Shown one piece after another: positions 1 through 6,425 of a stretch of DNA of 6,425 nt. Both the position numbers and the translations under genes were made by a program. The notes below the pieces were generated by a model, which did no database searches, had not been told where the DNA came from, and saw only the letters and a list, made by a program, of their open reading frames with translations. Source of the DNA: a virus. Its lineage: Duplodnaviria; Heunggongvirae; Uroviricota; Caudoviricetes. The stretch lies in the IMG/VR virus record IMGVR_UViG_2713896904_000003, positions 1-6,425 of that record, one strand, 5' to 3'. Positions within the stretch are counted from its first letter, which is position 1; each line of letters begins with the position of its first letter.

Positions 1-521
1 GTGACAGACGGCACAACAGGCTTCGGTAATCTCAGTGCCTTACGGGCAGCACTTTCCGGTAAGGCATCCGCCAGGTCATTACGAATCAGCCACCAGCACA
101 GTTCCGGCATTGTCACAACGTGACTATCATCAAAACCGAGATCCCGACGCACAACAGACAACACCCAGCGGGCACAGTTATCCGTTGCCATTGATTCCAG
201 CCGTTCCGTGAACTGATCGCGCAGCTGGTTATCGCAGTGCCAGCACAGACGGATTGCGCCCGGAGCGTGTCGCATTGTGGTCATGTTCTCGCTGTGCCAG
301 TCGGAATGAGGCCACTGGCAGCCTTTTTCACGAAGTAACCAGCTTTCAAGACATTCCACGCCACCAGCACGACGGATCACTGCCTCATTGCGGAACACGG
401 CCCGAACGGCAGGATCATCCGCCAGCGGTTGTGATGCCGCCGGAACGGCACCACTGGCGAAAGATGAATAACGTTCTGGCTCAGGCTCCAGCAGGACACG
501 CCCCTGCATAAACAGGGGCAT
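1..521 (-). CDS. DUF968-like prophage nin-region protein, 3' end beyond window; start uncertain (ATG at 521, 509 or 557)
   Basis: Minus-strand frame is open from 623 to position 1 with no stop; my translation from ATG 521 gives MPLFMQGRVLLEPEPERYSS...RLCWHCDNQL...ELCWWLIRNDL. Absent from the ORF track, presumably because it has no stop in the window. Cys/His/Trp-rich pattern and position after a KilA-N gene recall the DUF968/YdfU family; family name is from memory. No strong SD at any candidate start. Confidence 0.55.
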   Translation of the reverse strand, partial: MPLFMQGRVLLEPEPERYSSFASGAVPAASQPLADDPAVRAVFRNEAVIRRAGGVECLESWLLREKGCQWPHSDWHSENMTTMRHAPGAIRLCWHCDNQLRDQFTERLESMATDNCARWVLSVVRRDLGFDDSHVVTMPELCWWLIRNDLADALPESAARKALRLPKPVVPSV

Positions 522-600
522 CAACTCTGAACCTGGCCTGAACAATACGATCCCCATACGCGGGGCAATTTCAGGGGTCAGTAGTGCTCTCACGGTCACC

Positions 601-1428
601 TCAATGAACGGTATCGAGCAGCTTTAACAGCTCAGGGAATCGGGATTCGAAGAAATGCGGCTGCGTCTCGCGCGGATTTGCGGGACTGGTGATGTTCTTG
701 CCGAACATGCAGCCTTTCGCCGTCAGCGACCAGAATTTTTTGATGTTGTTAATCGCAGTGCGGCTGTATCGTTCACGTTGTTCAACGATCCCCAGCTTCG
801 CCATCTGGTGATATGCCTGATTAGCTGTCAGGCGGATACCATACTGCTTCAGCAGTGCACTCAGTGACAGCGTGGGGCGGCTTGAGCCATCAGGCGCGTC
901 AGCAGAGCGCGGTGCCAGATTCGGTAAGCCAACAGCTTCCTGGAGTTTCTGACAGGCACCAAGCACTGATGAGTTAGACAGATTTAACTCCCGGCGCATA
1001 AAGTCCAGCAGAATCACGCCAGCCTGCATCTTGTCAGCAGCCTGCCCGGATAATTTTTCCGGTGTGCTGGTTACCATGTCGAAAGTACGGATCACCTTCA
1101 GATGGAATGACGGGCTGATCCACATTGCATAGGCATACACCAGTTCCTTACAGACATATGTTCCGCCATTCCGCCCTTCTATTTTACTGACAGGTTTACT
1201 ACCCAAATTTTGGGTAGTTTCATTGAATGAACCGACACCCAGATTTTGGGTATCGATCAATTCCTGAACCAGCTCAGTAATCTGTTGGCTAGAAAGAAAC
1301 TTTCCCGGCTCCTTGGTTCTGGCATTTGCACCAGATGCTACTGCTGCGCGATGCAGATCGTTCAGGCTGTAACGCCCATAAGCATCACGACGAACTTCAA
1401 TACCATCAATGACCATCAGATTATTCAT
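601..1428 (-). CDS. KilA-N domain protein (275 aa) with uncharacterised C-terminal half
   Basis: N-terminus MNNLMVIDGIEVRRDAYGRYSLNDLHRAA... with ...YVCKELVYAYAMWISPSFHLKVIRTF is a typical KilA-N pattern. I place the start at ATG 1428 (AGAGGAGAAA SD 9 nt upstream) rather than the track's 1461, which would overlap the RusA 3' end. Confidence 0.75.
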   Translation of the reverse strand: MNNLMVIDGIEVRRDAYGRYSLNDLHRAAVASGANARTKEPGKFLSSQQITELVQELIDTQNLGVGSFNETTQNLGSKPVSKIEGRNGGTYVCKELVYAYAMWISPSFHLKVIRTFDMVTSTPEKLSGQAADKMQAGVILLDFMRRELNLSNSSVLGACQKLQEAVGLPNLAPRSADAPDGSSRPTLSLSALLKQYGIRLTANQAYHQMAKLGIVEQRERYSRTAINNIKKFWSLTAKGCMFGKNITSPANPRETQPHFFESRFPELLKLLDTVH

Positions 1429-1447
1429 ACTTCGTTTCTCCTCTTGA

Positions 1448-1837
1448 TCAGGCAGCTGCACCCGCCGTTTTCTCGTACTTACTGATAGTGATCTCGACCT
1501 TCCCTTCCGGGATAACCGGTCCCCATTCCACCAGCATTCTTTTCACCTGACTGTCGTCTTCCCACACCCCCGCGTGGGTCAGGGCGTCAAACAGCGCCTT
1601 GTTATAGTTGTCCAGATCGCGGATCCTGTTATCCGGAGGAAACAACACGATCTCCACTGAAGCAGGTGCCGACGTTGGTTTCGGCAGACGACGTAACTGT
1701 TCAACTATTGCTGCGCACGCCGCGCTCTGAAATTTTCGCCCCGCCGCGCTTATCAGGCTCTTACCTGCAAACGCCCCTTTGTTGGGGTGTCGCCAGTACG
1801 TGTTCACGCTGGGCGGAAAAGGCAGGATAAGCTTCAT
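1448..1837 (-). CDS. rusA: RusA-type Holliday junction resolvase (crossover junction endodeoxyribonuclease)
   Basis: 129 aa; PFPPSVNTYWRH near the N-terminus, catalytic-type acidic motifs RDLDNYNKALFDAL and WEDDSQV; clear resemblance to E. coli RusA. ATG at 1837-1835 overlaps the upstream stop as ATGA. Confidence 0.9.
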   Translation of the reverse strand: MKLILPFPPSVNTYWRHPNKGAFAGKSLISAAGRKFQSAACAAIVEQLRRLPKPTSAPASVEIVLFPPDNRIRDLDNYNKALFDALTHAGVWEDDSQVKRMLVEWGPVIPEGKVEITISKYEKTAGAAA

Positions 1838-2160
1838 ACTTTCAAGCCCCTCTCATGTAACCAGTGAGTTGCACGCAGCCTGGCGTTTTCCTCACCGGCA
1901 AGCAGTGCGCGGATAATCCCGACCGTCTCGCTGTCGTCGTCCTTCACTGCGGTATGAAGCGTTATCCCCCGGGCCACGCCACGCTTTATTGTGATGACGC
2001 CTTTTTTCTCCAGTGCGCGAAGATGCTCCACCGCTGCATTCACCGAACGGTATCCCAGCATGGTTGCCACCTCCTGATTGGTTGGCGGGAAGCCACGTTC
2101 TTTCTGGTAAGAAATCAGCATATCCAGCACCTGCTGCTGGCATTGAGTTAACGTCGTCAT
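1834..2160 (-). CDS. LexA N-terminal DNA-binding (winged-helix) domain protein lacking the S24 peptidase domain (108 aa)
   Basis: MTTLTQCQQQVLDMLISYQKERGFPPTNQEVATMLGYRSVNAAVEHLRALEKKGVITIKRGVARGITL aligns by eye with the LexA N-terminal domain ([58 protein letters not shown]...). Start at ATG 2160 is preceded by GTGGGGG and forms a TAATG overlap with the upstream stop; the track's start at 2193 is an in-frame alternative. Confidence 0.7.
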   Translation of the reverse strand: MTTLTQCQQQVLDMLISYQKERGFPPTNQEVATMLGYRSVNAAVEHLRALEKKGVITIKRGVARGITLHTAVKDDDSETVGIIRALLAGEENARLRATHWLHERGLKV

Positions 2161-2639
2161 TAAGCCCCCACGTAATTGCCTGGCAGATACCACTCTTCAC
2201 CCGATGCCACGCACCTTTTACTTTTGCGTACACACCGCTCACGGCGCGCCAGAAAATTGTTTCGTTCTGACTGGGAGTGGCTTTCACGGAATGCCTCCAT
2301 CCACACCGTTGCAGCACGACGAAATAAACCTCTTGACTCCAGATCTTCTGCCTGCTGAATCAGGCGCAAAATCACCCGCTGATCATTAGTGCCGACGTAG
2401 CTTTTACTGGCCACACTCATATGCTTCAGCACCGGCTCAGGTGGCAACACAGCCTTGCGAGAAAAATGCCGGTGTGTTTTGCCTTCACTGCGATAAGCGA
2501 CACGTCTGCACTGGCGTAACTTACTGGTCGTATTCAGTACACGGGGACGTGGAAAGTATGCAAACGCGTTCGCAATATCACCGGTCGTACATCCAGGATT
2601 GCTTTCAATGAATTTTTGAATCTCACTCATCAGGCTCAT
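2160..2639 (-). CDS. PerC-like transcriptional regulator with an N-terminal winged-helix-like extension (159 aa)
   Basis: C-terminal RLIQQAEDLESRGLFRRAATVWMEAFRESHSQSERNNFLARRERC matches the PerC-family pattern as I recall it (AE-LE-G-aromatic-RRAA-W). N-terminal MSEIQKFIESNPGCTTGDIANAF resembles a wHTH. Start at ATG 2639 with GGGGGTG SD; the track's longer ORF to 2717 is an upstream extension inside the O-like gene. Confidence 0.55.
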   Translation of the reverse strand: MSLMSEIQKFIESNPGCTTGDIANAFAYFPRPRVLNTTSKLRQCRRVAYRSEGKTHRHFSRKAVLPPEPVLKHMSVASKSYVGTNDQRVILRLIQQAEDLESRGLFRRAATVWMEAFRESHSQSERNNFLARRERCVRKSKRCVASGEEWYLPGNYVGA

Positions 2640-2641
2640 GA

Positions 2642-3448
2642 TCACCCCCTGAATCCTGCCGGGATCTGGCTGTAGTCCACATTGTTGTAACTGGCTTTGA
2701 AGTACGGGTCTTCGCATCTGGCCGCCGATACCGCAGGAACTTCCCAGGATTCTTCGAAATGACGATCCGGACCAAAGAACGTGACAGCCTGTTTCACAAA
2801 TTGTGTGCCGCTGTTACCCATCGCAGATACCCAGCCCGCGTAGCGTTTCACACCTTCCAGCATGGTTTCGGGGTTTACCCCCTCGTTCAAACGGGCTTTC
2901 CAGGCTTTGAAGGCCGCTGATTTTGAATTGCCACCAGCACGTTTGGGATATGCCAGCCATGCCTGCTCAAACTCCGGAGAGTATTCCGGTCGGTTTGAAC
3001 GAACTCGCACAGACTCATCAGCAGATGCACCAACAGCTATTGGTTCATTGACTGGTTCAAAAGAGTGACTGGTTCTGGGTGAATCTCCTGCACTACCCCC
3101 TGGTGCAACTCCTGCACTACCTGGTGAATTTGCTGCACCAGATAGTGAATTATTTGCACTACCCCCTAGTGAATCTCCTGCACCATCAAGATGAAGAAGA
3201 TAGATATTACTTGAGTTACCTTTTTCACCTTTCCTGGTGACTTTTTTTACCAGCCCGGACTCACAGAGGGCCGCAATATGATTCATCACAGAACGTTTGC
3301 TAATCTCGCACTGATCAGCGATATGCTGATAGCTGGGCCAGCACTCGCCCTGATCGCTGGCATTATCAGCCAGCTTAATCAGAACCAGTTTTCGCAATGG
3401 ATTTCCCACTCGAATTTTCATCGCTTTAACCATCAGCTCCATACTCAT
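2642..3448 (-). CDS. Lambda O-like replication initiator: N-terminal HTH, low-complexity linker encoded by iterons, C-terminal DnaT-like domain
   Basis: N-terminus KIRVGNPLRKLVLIKLADNASDQGECWPSYQHIADQCEISKRSVMNHIAALCESGLV is a replication-initiator-type HTH. The middle GGSANNSLSGAANSPGSAGVAPGGSAGDSP is encoded by direct DNA repeats. C-terminus EFEQAWLAYPKRAGGNSKSAAFKAWKARL. GGAGGT SD 5 nt before ATG 3448; ATGA overlap with the upstream gene. Confidence 0.75.
   Translation of the reverse strand: MSMELMVKAMKIRVGNPLRKLVLIKLADNASDQGECWPSYQHIADQCEISKRSVMNHIAALCESGLVKKVTRKGEKGNSSNIYLLHLDGAGDSLGGSANNSLSGAANSPGSAGVAPGGSAGDSPRTSHSFEPVNEPIAVGASADESVRVRSNRPEYSPEFEQAWLAYPKRAGGNSKSAAFKAWKARLNEGVNPETMLEGVKRYAGWVSAMGNSGTQFVKQAVTFFGPDRHFEESWEVPAVSAARCEDPYFKASYNNVDYSQIPAGFRG
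3079..3190. repeat. Five iteron-like direct repeats (putative origin of replication inside the initiator gene), flanked by an AT-rich tract at about 3188-3250
   Basis: Units start at 3079, 3103, 3124, 3145 and 3169 with 21-24 bp spacing: GTGAATCTCCTGCACTACCCCCTG / GTGCAACTCCTGCACTACCTG / GTGAATTTGCTGCACCAGATA / GTGAATTATTTGCACTACCCCCTA / GTGAATCTCCTGCACCATCAAG. Adjacent AT-rich stretch aagatgaagaagatagatattacttgagttacctttttcacc. Confidence 0.65.
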
Positions 3449-3681
3449 GCAGCACCTCCGAGATGCTTCATGTTTTTTCCGGAGCGAAAGGCTATAAGCG
3501 GCATACTGACGCGGTAATTACGGCCCAGCGGTTCACAAATCACTTTCTGACATTCACGGTCAACCAGGCTAACACGTAGAACATGCCCTGCAGGCGTGGT
3601 GTACCACTGCCCAACTGTAGGAATTGATGTTTTTTTACGCTGAAGTAAACGGCGAATATTGAGGCTCAACGGATTAAGCAT
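3445..3681 (-). CDS. Hypothetical small protein (78 aa), translationally coupled between the 278 aa gene and the O-like initiator
   Basis: Strong SD GGAGGG 7 nt before ATG 3681; its start overlaps the upstream stop and its stop overlaps the O-like ATG (ATGA). Basic N-terminus (NIRRLLQRKKTS). No family recognised. Confidence 0.55.
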   Translation of the reverse strand: MLNPLSLNIRRLLQRKKTSIPTVGQWYTTPAGHVLRVSLVDRECQKVICEPLGRNYRVSMPLIAFRSGKNMKHLGGAA

Positions 3682-4510
3682 GACGATGCCCTCCGCTGAT
3701 ATTCAGGAGACGGTGAATATGAAAATTAGCCTTATCCACCAAACGGATACGTTCAGCCTGCAAGTTAAGAAGGGTTTCTACCAGAACCTGATGCGCCTGC
3801 GGATCCGAAAGAGTTACCTTGCGCAGAGCACGTAGTGCAGTTGTTACATAACTGAGTTTATGTAAGTCTTCATCATTCAGACGAGTGAGGGCTGGGACAG
3901 TAGCCATGATGGCAGCCTCCTTGATCGGTGAAATACTTCCACCACCGGAAACGCCAATTTCGCTGGTGGTGAACTGAACGGGGTTGGCGTAACCGGTGAT
4001 CAAGGAAACCGGCGCATCTTTCGATGCCCCCGCCCAGCCCACCATAACTTTGATGTGAGCAAATGCGGACGATAAAAAAGACGCTGGCGCGTCATATATC
4101 GCCTTGATCAATTCCAGGACGCCAATCCCGGCACCCGCTTTATAAGGTGCCTGAACAGTGTAACGTCCCGGAATGGCAGAATCAATGTGCTGGTGGTCCT
4201 TCACACTCAACAAAATCACGCCTGAATTTCCACAAAGGACTAAAGCACTCATGCGGGTAGTCTTTGCGAAGATAGATAACGCGCTGTGTTTCTGGCTCCC
4301 AACGAATAACATGAACATAAAGTCCTCTTCCGTCACGAAACCAGCGGTTAAGTTCCTGCACAACTCGCCCCCCACAGTCAGGTAAAGTTCTCTGTGGTTA
4401 CTTACAGCCAGGTGATTTGGTAATCTGCATTCATGCCGTAACAACAGGTGTTCAGCGACGCTGACCACCAGCTGTTGCGACAAACGGTTATTTGCCGTTA
4501 AACTGTTCAT
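3674..4510 (-). CDS. Hypothetical protein (278 aa), possible Rossmann-like alpha/beta core; function unknown
   Basis: Long uninterrupted ORF; ATG 4510 overlaps the CII-like stop as ATGA. Alternating hydrophobic strands and Gly-rich loops (LVLCGNSGVILLSV, YKAGAGIGVLELIKAIYD, VSLITGYANP, EIGVSGGGSISPIKEAA) suggest a nucleotide-binding-type fold. No Walker A, macro, SIR2 or nucleotidyltransferase signature that I can confirm. Confidence 0.65.
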   Translation of the reverse strand: MNSLTANNRLSQQLVVSVAEHLLLRHECRLPNHLAVSNHRELYLTVGGELCRNLTAGFVTEEDFMFMLFVGSQKHSALSIFAKTTRMSALVLCGNSGVILLSVKDHQHIDSAIPGRYTVQAPYKAGAGIGVLELIKAIYDAPASFLSSAFAHIKVMVGWAGASKDAPVSLITGYANPVQFTTSEIGVSGGGSISPIKEAAIMATVPALTRLNDEDLHKLSYVTTALRALRKVTLSDPQAHQVLVETLLNLQAERIRLVDKANFHIHRLLNISGGHRHA

Positions 4511-5070
4511 GCGTTAGTTTCTCCACAGACACAAAACGCCACGACGCCCGGAGCTGCACACTCGCGGGCGTCACTCTTTTCTGGAGCGCAAAAGATTTTG
4601 TAGACCAGTGCTGCATGCTCCTGGAGCTTCGAAATTGACAGATACAACTCATCATTAATTGCTGTCTGCTCGTGTGGCTCCACTACCCCATCTTCGATTG
4701 CCGAACGAATCTGCTTTGAGTAACTCCCGATCTGTTCGATGACTTCCAGCAGGCGCTGGTTGATATCGGCGTTCTCTACTTCCTCAATTTCAGGAAGCGA
4801 TACAAACACCCCACCAGCAGACTGTGCGACAGCATCCGCAATGTAGTGAGTGCCAGCCGCGCGCTGTAAAATCATTGCCCATCCCAGCGGGAAAATCTGA
4901 TCGCCATCTGCACGAAGGCGGTTGAATAAAGCGTTCTCTGTTACATCCAGCCACTCAGCAGCTTCAGCGTAACCCCCCGGCAACGCCGCGATAGTTTTTC
5001 TGACAGCTTTCACGTACCACTCAGGCTGTTTTTCTACTTTCCAGTGATGCTTACCCACGGTTAGCCTCAT
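4507..5070 (-). CDS. CII-like early regulatory protein (phage regulatory protein CII/CP76-like); alternative GTG start at 5058
   Basis: Sits directly after the cro-like gene. HTH-like segment GGYAEAAEWLDVTENALFNRLR followed by a helical C-terminal region; architecture resembles CP76-family CII proteins as I recall them. ATG 5070 has a weak SD; GTG 5058 is preceded by GAGG. Confidence 0.5.
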   Translation of the reverse strand: MRLTVGKHHWKVEKQPEWYVKAVRKTIAALPGGYAEAAEWLDVTENALFNRLRADGDQIFPLGWAMILQRAAGTHYIADAVAQSAGGVFVSLPEIEEVENADINQRLLEVIEQIGSYSKQIRSAIEDGVVEPHEQTAINDELYLSISKLQEHAALVYKIFCAPEKSDARECAAPGVVAFCVCGETNA

Positions 5071-5101
5071 CGTTCTGTGGTTAAAAATTGAAGGTGTTCT
5101 G

Positions 5102-5302
5102 TTAATCTTTCGGATAGATATCCGGTCTTAAGTCAGATTTCGTAATTGCACCTGACGTGCATTGCTCAAGTTTTTTAGCCAGCACAAAACTGGCTTTTTT
5201 ATAACCATTGAAAACCAGCCGTAAGTAGCCTGGTGTTGAGCCAACTTTGCCAGCCAACTCGGCCTGCTGTTCTTTGGTTAAAGAGTCCCAATACGCTTTC
5301 AT
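5102..5302 (-). CDS. Cro-like small HTH regulator (66 aa)
   Basis: MKAYWDSLTKEQQAELAGKVGSTPGYLRLVFNGYKKASFVLAKKLEQCTSGAITKSDLRPDIYPKD; GGAGGT SD 9 nt before ATG 5302; divergent from the cI-like gene. The track's 167 aa ORF is an in-frame upstream extension that would run through the operator region and the cI start. Confidence 0.7.
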   Translation of the reverse strand: MKAYWDSLTKEQQAELAGKVGSTPGYLRLVFNGYKKASFVLAKKLEQCTSGAITKSDLRPDIYPKD

Positions 5303-5392
5303 ACAATATGTACCTCCGGTATACACATTACATGATTGAGATGAACCTTCAAGATACTTGTACCTTAACGGTACAAGGGTTTTAATTTCGTT
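5303..5392. promoter_or_regulatory. Divergent OR-like operator/promoter region between the cro-like and cI-like genes
   Basis: Perfect 21 bp palindrome CTTGTACCTTAACGGTACAAG (5357-5377) and imperfect dyad ATGTACC-tcc-GGTATACA (5308-5325) share the half-site TGTACC/GGTACA. Candidate PR on the minus strand: -35 TTGAAG (plus 5347-5352), 16 bp spacer, -10 TAATGT (plus 5325-5330). Candidate PRM on the plus strand: -35 TTGTAC (5358-5363), 17 bp spacer, -10 TTTAAT (5381-5386), which would start the cI mRNA at or near ATG 5393. Confidence 0.5.
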
Positions 5393-6067
5393 ATGAAAAC
5401 AGTCCATGACATCCGGCGGTCTAACGCCAGAAAACTGAGAGATGGTGTTGGCGGGAATTCTTCCTTTGCCACCATGATTGATCGCGAGCCAACCCAGACC
5501 AGCAGGTTTATGGGAGATGGTGCAACTAAAAATATCGGTGACAGCATGGCACGGCACATCGAAAAATGTTTCGACCTGCCTGTCGGATGGCTTGATCAAG
5601 AACACCAGACAACGAACATCACAAAAAAACCTGATGTTTCAATCACTAACAAACAAATAACGTTAGTCCCTGTCATATCATGGGTACAGGCCGGAGCATG
5701 GAAAGAAGTTGGCTATTCTGAGGTTGATTTGAGCACAGCAGAAACTTATCCCTGCCCTGTACCCTGTGGCGAAATGACTTATATCTTGCGGGTGATTGGT
5801 GATTCAATGATTGATGAATACCGCCCGGGAGATATGATTTTTGTTGATCCTGAAGTACCTGCCTGCCACGGTGACGACGTTATTGCATTGATGCACGATA
5901 CAGGTGAAACCACCTTTAAAAGGTTGATAGAAGACGGAACACAACGTTATCTCAAAGCATTAAACCCAAACTGGCCAGAGCCTTACATTAAGATCAACGG
6001 TAATTGTTCCATAATTGGTACTGTGATTTTCTCAGGAAAACCAAGGAGATACCATATTAAAGCCTAA
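5393..6067 (+). CDS. CI-like prophage repressor: N-terminal HTH plus C-terminal S24 (LexA-like) autopeptidase domain
   Basis: C-terminal region ILRVIGDSMIDEYRPGDMIFVDPE...TFKRLIEDGTQRYLKALNPNWPEPYIKINGNCSIIGTVIFS parallels lambda CI (GNSM...[40 protein letters not shown]). Ala-Gly in VQAGAW matches lambda's VQAGMF cleavage site; Ser in GDSM and Lys in FKRL form the dyad. Confidence 0.85.
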   Translation: MKTVHDIRRSNARKLRDGVGGNSSFATMIDREPTQTSRFMGDGATKNIGDSMARHIEKCFDLPVGWLDQEHQTTNITKKPDVSITNKQITLVPVISWVQAGAWKEVGYSEVDLSTAETYPCPVPCGEMTYILRVIGDSMIDEYRPGDMIFVDPEVPACHGDDVIALMHDTGETTFKRLIEDGTQRYLKALNPNWPEPYIKINGNCSIIGTVIFSGKPRRYHIKA

Positions 6068-6079
6068 TCAATATTTATG

Positions 6080-6103
6080 AACCTGCTTCGGCAGGTTTTT
6101 TTA
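6080..6103 (+). terminator. Rho-independent terminator downstream of the cI-like gene
   Basis: AACCTGC-TTCG-GCAGGTT stem-loop (7 bp stem) followed directly by a run of seven T. Confidence 0.6.
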
Positions 6104-6106
6104 TAC

Positions 6107-6140
6107 TTGACAATGTACCCTTGAGATACATAATGTACCC
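6107..6140 (+). promoter_or_regulatory. PL-like promoter with duplicated operator-like motif
   Basis: TTGACA (6107-6112), 16 bp spacer, CATAAT (6129-6134). Direct repeat AATGTACCC at 6112-6120 and 6132-6140 carries the same TGTACC core as the OR-region dyads. Confidence 0.45.
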
Positions 6141-6243
6141 AGATGAAACAGCGAACAGGCAGGATGCCCACGAAGTAGCCGCCCGGGGCATATGAAGACC
6201 GGGATGATTCGTTAGCAACAAAAAAGCGCCGTACCGGACACTT

Positions 6244-6256
6244 CGCTCTTTAACAA
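6244..6256 (+). promoter_or_regulatory. boxA-like element (possible nut-type antitermination site) in the leader of the leftward transcript
   Basis: CGCTCTTTAACAA matches the rrn boxA consensus (TGCTCTTTAACAA) and the CGCTCTT core of lambda nutL/nutR boxA as I recall them. A possible 5 bp stem hairpin CAAGT-aattgata-ACTTG follows at 6271-6288, though its loop is larger than a canonical boxB. Confidence 0.4.
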
Positions 6257-6301
6257 TCTGATCCCCATCAACAAGTAATTGATAACTTGAGGAAGTGTGA
6301 A

Positions 6302-6391
6302 ATGCACAAAACAGAACCAAAAATCGTCGCGCCAGGCTACACTGAACCGCCCCGGGAATCCTGGAGACTAAACTTCCTGAGAAAGAGGTAA
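6302..6391 (+). pseudogene. Gene start truncated by IS insertion; only about 13 native codons (MHKTEPKIVAPGY) remain
   Basis: GAGGAAG SD 6 nt before ATG 6302, about 170 nt downstream of the PL-like promoter. The reading frame runs into the putative IS end at about 6343 and stops at 6389-6391 inside IS-derived sequence. Confidence 0.35.
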
Positions 6392-6425
6392 ACAGGATGA
6401 CTAAAAATACTCGTTTTTCCCCCGA
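6343..6425 (+). mobile_element. Left end of an IS3-family insertion sequence (IS629/IS1203-like), continuing beyond the window
   Basis: TGAACCGCCCCGGGAATCCTGGAGACTAAAC... followed by AGAGGTAAACAGG ATG ACT AAA AAT ACT CGT TTT TCC CCC matches, from memory, the IS629-type left inverted repeat and the orfA start MTKNTRFSPE. Exact boundary is uncertain by a few bp. Confidence 0.55.
6396..6425 (+). CDS. IS3-family transposase OrfA, 5' fragment (MTKNTRFSP...)
   Basis: ATG 6396 with AGAGG SD; the first nine codons match the recalled OrfA N-terminus of IS629-like elements; runs off the window end. Confidence 0.5.

Follow-up and report, generated by a model that had tools for sequence, protein, structure and literature searches.

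The stretch of DNA analysed here, 6,425 nucleotides (nt) from a Caudoviricetes virus (IMG/VR record IMGVR_UViG_2713896904_000003, positions 1–6,425; referred to below as the window), corresponds to the early-right region of a lambdoid prophage of the SfV type, read on the minus strand, in which an open reading frame (ORF) of 278 amino acids (aa) and another of 78 aa (p78) lie between a CII-like regulatory gene and a replication initiator gene. We found that this locus very probably (with a probability of about 0.8) represents an RNA "immunity" cassette of the P4/P1 type, situated in the SfV-like early-right operon with a DUF4222 gene on one side and the replication genes on the other. Judged from the sequence, the 278-aa ORF amounts to one long open frame running over a gene in another frame, a candidate promoter, two regulatory RNAs, and a 77-aa gene (p77). 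The order on the minus strand is an IsrK-like small RNA (sRNA) with the sites a1 and b1 and a terminator, a C4-type antisense RNA with b′ and a′, the target sites a2 and b2, a Shine–Dalgarno (SD) sequence, the 77-aa ORF, the 78-aa ORF, and the initiator gene. RNA switches of this type are already well known; what is new here is the small cargo p77 and the place of the switch ahead of lambdoid replication genes.

IsrK-like and C4-type RNAs with their target sites

Both RNAs were matched by their Rfam models above the gathering thresholds. The IsrK-like sRNA (4150–4074, minus strand), equivalent to seqA of P4, scored 64.2 bits with RF01394 (gathering, 50), and a terminator scan found its intrinsic terminator, a stem at 4093–4080 followed by U6. 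Its sites a1 (4125–4119) and b1 (4110–4102) pair with a′ and b′, respectively, of the C4/CI-type antisense RNA (4049–3962, minus strand), which begins after a spacer of 24 nt and gave a full-length match (1–87) to RF01695 at 82.3 bits (gathering, 45; E = 1.2e-15). In this C4 RNA, whose calculated minimum free energy is −45.4 kcal/mol, b′ forms a loop (4005–3997) and a′ (3990–3984) is single-stranded. The tandem of IsrK and C4 was also detected with Rfam in 7 related phage loci, in Citrobacter, and in P4. The Rfam c4-a1b1 model stayed below threshold in the window (21.4 bits vs 46.7).

The downstream C4 targets on the same strand are a2 (3957–3951) and b2 (3926–3916), the latter spanning the strong SD sequence AAGGAGG (3922–3916) located 8 nt upstream of the p77 ATG at 3907. 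The duplex calculated for b′ and b2 over this SD sequence (−15.2 kcal/mol) surpassed all 500 shuffles. The pairings were further analysed in an alignment of nine modules, extending from the IsrK 5′ end to the ATG of the cargo gene. When the intramolecular stems, a′–a2, and b′–b2 were taken together, 92% of the cells were paired, with 25 compensatory pairs; none of 500 shuffles was as good, and slid controls gave 39–48%. Compensatory changes supported the C4 fold, a long closing stem around two hairpins, its helices 4–6 being 98–100% paired (10 pairs altered on both sides). Of the long-range pairings, a′–a2 was 97.8% paired (5 of 5 pairs compensatory), and b′–b2 was 84% paired (7 of 11 compensatory). 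For a1–a′ and b1–b′, the corresponding values were 98.6% and 14 of 16. Moreover, the loop sequences vary between phages, with the targets matching each time: a′ reads ACGCCAA in the window and UUUCCAC in mEp460, and b′ reads CCUUGAUCA in the window and CUUUGGUGA in mEp460. Such co-variation of loop and target is, as far as aligned sequences can tell, the signature of exchangeable specificity, comparable with that of P1 and P7.

A candidate isrK promoter can be placed at 4157..4185 (minus strand), with a −35 box TTGATT (4185–4180) that overlaps the stop codon of the DUF4222 gene, a 17-nt spacer, a −10 box TACACT (4162–4157), and the +1 position near 4150. Stronger promoters, of the TTGACT/TATATT type, occupy the equivalent position in standalone modules.

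Two further observations concern the RNA elements themselves. Between a2 and b2 lies a conserved GGUGGUGG segment (3946–3939, minus strand), in which GGUGGUG is invariant in nearly all nine modules and is a repeat of the 5′ arm of the stem that closes C4. Through pairing of this GGUGGUG with the C4 3′ arm (CACCACC, 3965–3971), an alternative structure could form, which may be the counterpart of the A/B structures of Gifsy-1. In addition, two or three C4 cassettes occur in tandem, 656 nt apart, in the IMG/VR loci L052 (4679–5390), L053 (3667–4375), and L073 (9740–11104), every one of them with a short Rha-like ORF (121 aa) behind it. These tandem cassettes are RNA-switch arrays, possibly with differing specificities.

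The 278-codon frame and its Phage_ASH match

The initial annotation described the locus as a two-protein insert of 278 and 78 aa. Both ORFs were indeed recovered where it had placed them (3674..4510 and 3445..3681, both on the minus strand), as were the ATGA overlaps with ymfL (4510/4507) and with the replication gene (3448/3445), the 8-nt overlap between the pair (3674–3681), and the flanking genes, a YmfL/CII-like gene (PF06892, NF041471) and an HTH_36/DnaD-type initiator gene. The content of the insert turned out otherwise: it is an IsrK/C4/target cassette with a 77-aa cargo, preceded by a DUF4222 gene, and p78 goes with the replication gene. The notion of an extra insert between the cII-like gene and the initiator gene holds to the extent that the slot contains an extra exchangeable module compared with the layout of the simplest relatives (ymfL, ymfM/DUF4222, initiator; e14 and 17 other enterobacterial loci), and fails in that this module is not a pair of proteins. 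In VT2-Sakai, VT2phi_272, and a Klebsiella phage, the same cassette is found elsewhere in the genome. No evidence of an enzyme or defence function of the insert was found, PADLOC not having been searched.

The 278-aa ORF had also been described as belonging to no known family. Residues 117–210 (window 3881–4162), however, match Pfam Phage_ASH (PF10554) at 67.9 bits (cut-off, 26), the sole Pfam match of the ORF, and PHROG 3960/821, with 367 bits for PHROG 3960 ("transcriptional regulator"). The 176- to 181-aa version of the ORF is labelled "ash family protein" by the Prokaryotic Genome Annotation Pipeline (PGAP). Taken at face value, these matches, together with the open frame, favour a regulatory protein (a transcriptional regulator or antirepressor) with Ash as a protein domain, whether in full length (278 aa) or in the shorter version (176 to 181 aa). 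We consider this very unlikely, because the Phage_ASH match coincides exactly with two structured RNAs, IsrK and C4, and the C4 target sites, and because an intrinsic terminator lies within the supposed gene. Moreover, amino-acid constraint is absent: from isrK to the cargo ATG, the ratio of nonsynonymous to synonymous changes (pN/pS) was 0.98 in the Ash frame, vs 0.88 and 0.89 in the other two frames, so that Phage_ASH, tested as a protein domain, showed no purifying selection on its amino acids. The Ash frame is also interrupted or shifted in the modules of VT2phi_272, VT2-Sakai, and the Klebsiella phage, whose RNAs are intact.

The Gly-rich loops that had suggested a Rossmann-like fold are instead translated RNA stems free of amino-acid constraint. 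Translating the IsrK hairpins gives GAGIG, the a2/GGUGGUGG segment gives GVSGGGSIS, and the C4 closing stem gives a further Gly-rich stretch, MVGWAGAS; the peptide MVGWAGASKDAPVSLITGYANPVQFTT corresponds to the C4 RNA translated from the AUG at its 5′ end. No nucleotide-binding family matched the 278-aa ORF in Pfam or NCBIfam, and NCBIfam gave no match for the 278-, 181-, 77-, 78-, and 59-aa products.

The Pfam model behaves in the same way in P4, where the immunity factor is the CI RNA and no protein. There, PF10554 covers residues 22–85 of a legacy ORF ("cI gene product (AA 1-137)") lying over the CI RNA, and for this reason SfV orf37, the counterpart of the 278-aa ORF, came to be named "immunity region". 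The epsilon protein of P4 belongs to a distinct family, PF25738. A detection scheme for P4-like satellites uses PF10554 as its epsilon profile (bioRxiv 10.1101/2021.03.30.437493). Since PF10554 in P4 marks the CI RNA locus and epsilon is PF25738 (locus L151, 8168–8584 and 7888–8175), this satellite marker probably detects the RNA immunity locus adjoining epsilon.

Chance is excluded as the origin of the 278-codon frame without stops. A frame-agnostic pattern scan of IMG/VR yielded 38 unique modules with an 88-nt C4, and in all 38 the long frame contained no stop over IsrK and the spacer (35 codons) or across C4 up to the cargo ATG (46 codons). It was likewise free of stops in 12 of 12 clusters below 85% identity and in 8 of 8 below 80%, whereas the other two frames were open in only 8–38%; as the modules share ancestry, these open-frame counts overstate independence. 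Indels among the modules occur in multiples of three, and the cargo ATG is in frame. Furthermore, a start codon (ATG; GTG at 4204–4202 in the window) is found 17–19 codons 5′ of the IsrK +1 position, upstream of the −35 box, in 5 of 6 upstream contexts.

These features point to a further possibility, namely that early-right transcripts are translated from the ATG at 4510 or the GTG at 4204–4202 through the IsrK terminator and C4. On such transcripts, the RNAs would be unable to fold, p77 would be made with an N-terminal extension, p78 and the replication gene would be coupled, and C4 would be bypassed in lytic growth. The ATGA overlaps at both ends of the ORF fit this possibility, as does the need for an AUG within the C4-like RNA (orf45) of Gifsy-1 in antirepressor translation (PMC4825925). 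On the other hand, the SD sequences before the conserved start are weak, stops are present in this frame in the short-C4 variants (VT2-Sakai and Klebsiella types), the modules are related by descent, and the pN/pS of about 1 in the long frame indicates that no peptide function is selected. We hold translation through the RNAs to be possible, if still tentative; it would add to the RNA cassette as the best explanation and not exclude it.

The simplest reading of the open frame may then be, with similar caution, that the transit of ribosomes and not the peptide is under selection. It is rather doubtful, though conceivable, that the switch is conditional, transcripts from its own promoter being controlled by C4 and those from the early promoter being translated through, with melting of the terminator and the antisense RNA. 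If true, the 278-aa ORF would be the footprint of a translational bypass, and the "Ash family" of Pfam and PGAP would be a translated RNA locus and no protein family. Should the open-frame signal prove real, translation would be a means, open to experimental test, by which a phage overrides an antisense RNA of its own.

The composite nature of the frame also matters for annotation. ORFs of 180–380 aa named "Ash family protein", "immunity region", "transcriptional regulator", or "antirepressor" overlie a pair of RNA genes together with a promoter and a terminator. Over 500 complete E. coli genomes contain such mis-annotated ORFs, as do many Stx, SfV, and P4-like elements, and the small genes within these ORFs (DUF4222, p77) are overlooked or merged.

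Cargo gene p77, p78, and the flanking genes

The cargo gene p77 (3674..3907, minus strand) is in frame with the long ORF and encodes a 77-aa protein, modelled as a helical hairpin (predicted local distance difference test score (pLDDT), 83). In contrast to the RNA part of the frame, with its pN/pS of 0.98, p77 showed a pN/pS of 0.27. Its close relatives are only near-identical ones, in SfV, 2H10, Ayreon, and Stx2c phages. An exhaustive HMMER search gave 12 matches with three informative distant homologues (45–48% identity), and all three sit after a C4 translation, indicating that p77 is a dedicated cargo of the cassette. In mEp460 and Stx2a phages, the same slot holds a Rha antirepressor, which in these and other phages is opened by the same ATG; in VT2phi_272, VT2-Sakai, and the Klebsiella phage, the antirepressor gene annotated by the depositors begins exactly at the ATG equivalent to 3907. 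Among 93 IMG/VR modules, the cargo was mostly a Rha, Bro-N, ORF6N, or AntA antirepressor, the remainder being small proteins, with p77 in nine. One small cargo type of 75–77 aa (MANRKQ..., the first ORF after C4 in the IMG/VR loci L055, L050, and L066) showed a weak likeness to the "Derepression" family of P4 epsilon (22.3 bits, with the cut-off at 27), and hence some cassettes may gate epsilon-like antirepressors directly.

The 78-aa gene, p78 (SfV orf38; 3445..3681, minus strand), is real, as the initial annotation had it: 41 homologues were found, and the pN/pS of its core was 0.21. It is translationally coupled to the replication gene by the ATGA at 3448/3445, and its model consists of an N-terminal helix and a small SH3/Tudor-like β-barrel (pLDDT, 76.5), for which a fold search returned generic matches only. 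Of the two genes, p77 is cassette cargo, and p78 adjoins the initiator gene whichever cargo is present, its first ~20 residues varying with the cargo. This retention with the initiator gene points to p78 being a replication accessory protein. At least three versions of the p78 N-terminus (window 3620–3681) were seen, namely MLNPL.LNI..., MIRNIFKRF..., and MIRRIVYFL..., apparently according to the upstream cargo, and the core from GQWYTTP onward is nearly invariant; a recombination joint therefore appears to lie inside the p78 gene. A resemblance of p78 to a diverged DUF4222 protein, noticed by eye, had a blastp E value of 0.12 and a profile–profile probability of 1% in hhalign, and is not claimed.

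It is unlikely, in our estimate, that p77 and p78 constitute a host-takeover, toxin, or defence/anti-defence module that lies only by chance behind the RNA switch. In its favour, the first gene behind C4/CI is small and host-directed in both P1 (icd) and P4 (the 65-aa ORF), YmfM of e14, at a neighbouring position, inhibits division, and the narrow distribution of p77 resembles that of an accessory gene. However, p78 remains with the initiator gene whatever the cargo, and p77 lacks similarity to Icd; its candidacy as a homologue of P1 Icd was rejected, since hhalign of the p77 alignment against Icd gave a probability of 0.08%. Fold searches with the p77 and p78 models produced no informative match (PADLOC not being among the resources searched), and neither p77 nor p78 matched the 65-aa ORF, epsilon, orf151, or orf106 of P4.

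Downstream of the switch, the first flanking gene is the replication initiator gene (2642..3448, minus strand), HTH_36/DnaD-like by family searches. The upstream neighbour, ymfL (4507..5070, minus strand), encodes a CII-like regulator (PF06892, NF041471), and its stop codon shares ATGA with the ATG at 4510, where the long frame begins as a YmfM-like N-terminal segment (4362..4510, minus strand). The first ~100 residues are 32% identical to e14 YmfM over 99 aa (blastp, with an E-value from a six-sequence database). Both the position and the ATGA overlap after ymfL are the same as in e14, and the frame here runs past the YmfM stop. Most relatives have ymfL, a 108- to 112-aa YmfM-like ORF overlapping DUF4222, and the initiator gene in this order. 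Selection was evident in 12 loci over the non-overlapping N-terminal 56 codons of the YmfM-like ORF (pN/pS, 0.33 vs 1.16 and 1.17 in the other frames), with a less clear value of 0.52 for the segment in the window's own lineage.

The DUF4222 gene (4361–4182, minus strand; 59 aa, GTG start) lies in a frame different from that of the 278-aa ORF. Its product matched PF13973 at 51.1 bits (cut-off, 27), and PGAP calls the gene in the 99.6% identical E. coli prophage. In a set of 18 sequences, made up of the window, e14, and another 16 enterobacterial loci retrieved by means of the DUF4222 protein, pN/pS over the shared DNA was 0.26 in the DUF4222 frame, 1.44 in the frame of the 278-aa ORF, and 1.45 in the third frame; the low value in the one frame and the high value in the other over the same DNA show that selection acts on the DUF4222 frame. 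At window 4180–4210, the last ~10 codons of DUF4222 (ECEGPPAH) are unlike those of cassette-free relatives (EITDDHEH). This 3′ divergence coincides with the left end of the cassette homology, within which lie the −35 box and the start codon conserved for the long frame. The 3′ end of DUF4222 therefore seems to have been exchanged for cassette sequence.

The same arrangement bears on e14 itself (locus L003, 3323–3681), where ymfM is overlapped in another frame by a conserved 59-aa DUF4222 ORF (3502–3681, TTG start) and, over the shared ymfM/DUF4222 DNA, purifying selection is seen in the DUF4222 frame only (0.26 vs 1.44). YmfM of e14 has been published as an SOS-inducible inhibitor of division. 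The published pBAD-ymfM clone includes 53 of the 59 DUF4222 codons, and the two frames were not separated in that paper; filamentation from this clone could therefore be caused by either YmfM or DUF4222.

As to the wider locus, positions 3300–4700 are 99.1% identical to orf36–orf39 of Shigella phage SfV, in which the locus corresponds to orf37 ("immunity region") and orf38, and the identity to an E. coli Ec1120 prophage is 99.6%. Of 5426 complete E. coli genomes, 3044 contain related DNA, and 521 of these have at least 80% of the 3300–4700 stretch. A dam methylase gene that SfV carries between genes for a PerC-like protein and a LexA-DNA-binding-domain protein is absent from both the window (1834–2717) and E. 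coli Ec1120. The 119-aa LexA-like protein of the window consists of the DNA-binding domain alone, without the peptidase domain.

Proposed switch and comparison with known systems

The mechanism proposed here is modelled on the c4-icd-ant genes of P1, seqA-CI-seqC of P4, and isrK-orf45-anrP of Gifsy-1 (PMC4825925). In the lysogen, a weak constitutive promoter at 4185–4157 would produce IsrK together with some read-through transcript. From the latter, C4 would be excised, by RNase P by analogy with these systems, and would pair with a2 and b2, masking the ribosome-binding site of p77 and acting through a block of translation or through termination. With translation of p77 blocked, the loss of coupling and polarity or termination would silence p78 and the replication genes as far as this promoter drives them. 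Titration of C4, either by IsrK or by surplus a1/b1 sites, would switch the genes on. Presumably, p77 is the gated cargo, taking the slot that is occupied elsewhere by antirepressors (Rha, Ant) or small proteins of the Kil/Icd type, and p78 would serve as a small accessory protein of the replication module.

Several points weigh against interpreting the locus as an RNA cassette. The candidate isrK promoter agrees with the consensus at 8 of 12 positions, which is under the threshold of the promoter scan, and it was not called by that scan. The stop-free frame and the conserved start upstream of the promoter are unexplained if the region is read as purely non-coding. Finally, that C4 control reaches the replication gene is something we infer from P4. 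With these points taken into account in the probability given at the outset, the locus would place a P4/P1-type RNA switch directly ahead of the replication genes in a lambdoid prophage already equipped with a CI/Cro protein switch. This position suggests that replication is under a second lock, based on RNA and exchangeable in its specificity.

Among known systems, the ymfL-ymfM-oweE region of e14 resembles the flanks of the locus, having ymfL, an ATGA-coupled YmfM-like start, and a DUF4222 ORF in another frame. It differs in being without an IsrK/C4 cassette; its YmfM frame ends ~10 nt before the initiator ATG, and DUF4222 overlaps the start of the initiator gene.

P4 contains the IsrK-like (seqA) and C4-like (CI) RNAs in the same order as the window, and in both the Phage_ASH model overlies RNA. 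The junction AGGAGGCTGCCATCATGGCTAC is identical, leading into a small ORF whose frame is also that of the AUG at the C4/CI 5′ end; in P4 this is the 65-aa ORF, overlapped by 8 nt by the next gene, epsilon, which is followed by orf151, orf106, and the alpha primase gene. In contrast to P4, the SfV-like element that hosts the cassette is a lambdoid prophage possessing a CI/Cro protein switch, the spacer from IsrK to C4 is 24 nt instead of ~107 nt, and the cassette lies inside an operon with an additional upstream promoter. Furthermore, none of p77, p78, and the HTH_36/DnaD initiator is related to the 65-aa ORF, epsilon, or alpha of P4.

The immI region of P1 is similar in its annotated order (promoter, a1, b1, c4, a2, b2, the 73-aa icd, the overlapping ant1, and kilA-repL). 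In P1/P7, as in the window, b2 lies next to the ribosome-binding site, and the small ORF behind it (73 aa in P1, 77 aa in the window) overlaps the next gene, with genes for lytic replication farther downstream; specificity loops co-vary with their targets, as in the heteroimmunity of P1 and P7. The window differs from P1/P7 in that p77 is no Icd homologue, there is no Ant in the window (Rha or Ant being found in its relatives), and a1/b1 are carried on a separately terminated sRNA.

In the isrK-orf45-anrP region of Gifsy-1, read-through of the IsrK terminator yields an inactive mRNA, which the short IsrK activates in trans, and translation from the AUG within the C4-like RNA (orf45) is coupled to, and needed for, translation of the antirepressor (PMC4825925). 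The authors of that work liken IsrK to seqA of P4 and the downstream RNA to CI (PMC4825925). Gifsy-1 (isrK-orf45-anrP-isrJ) thus shares with the window an IsrK whose terminator is partly read through, a C4-like RNA (STnc1160) containing an AUG, and a gated gene downstream. The cargo of the window, however, is a 77-aa protein in place of the AnrP antirepressor, and the cassette lies upstream of replication genes. Moreover, the frame equivalent to orf45 enters the cargo gene in frame and extends upstream through IsrK.

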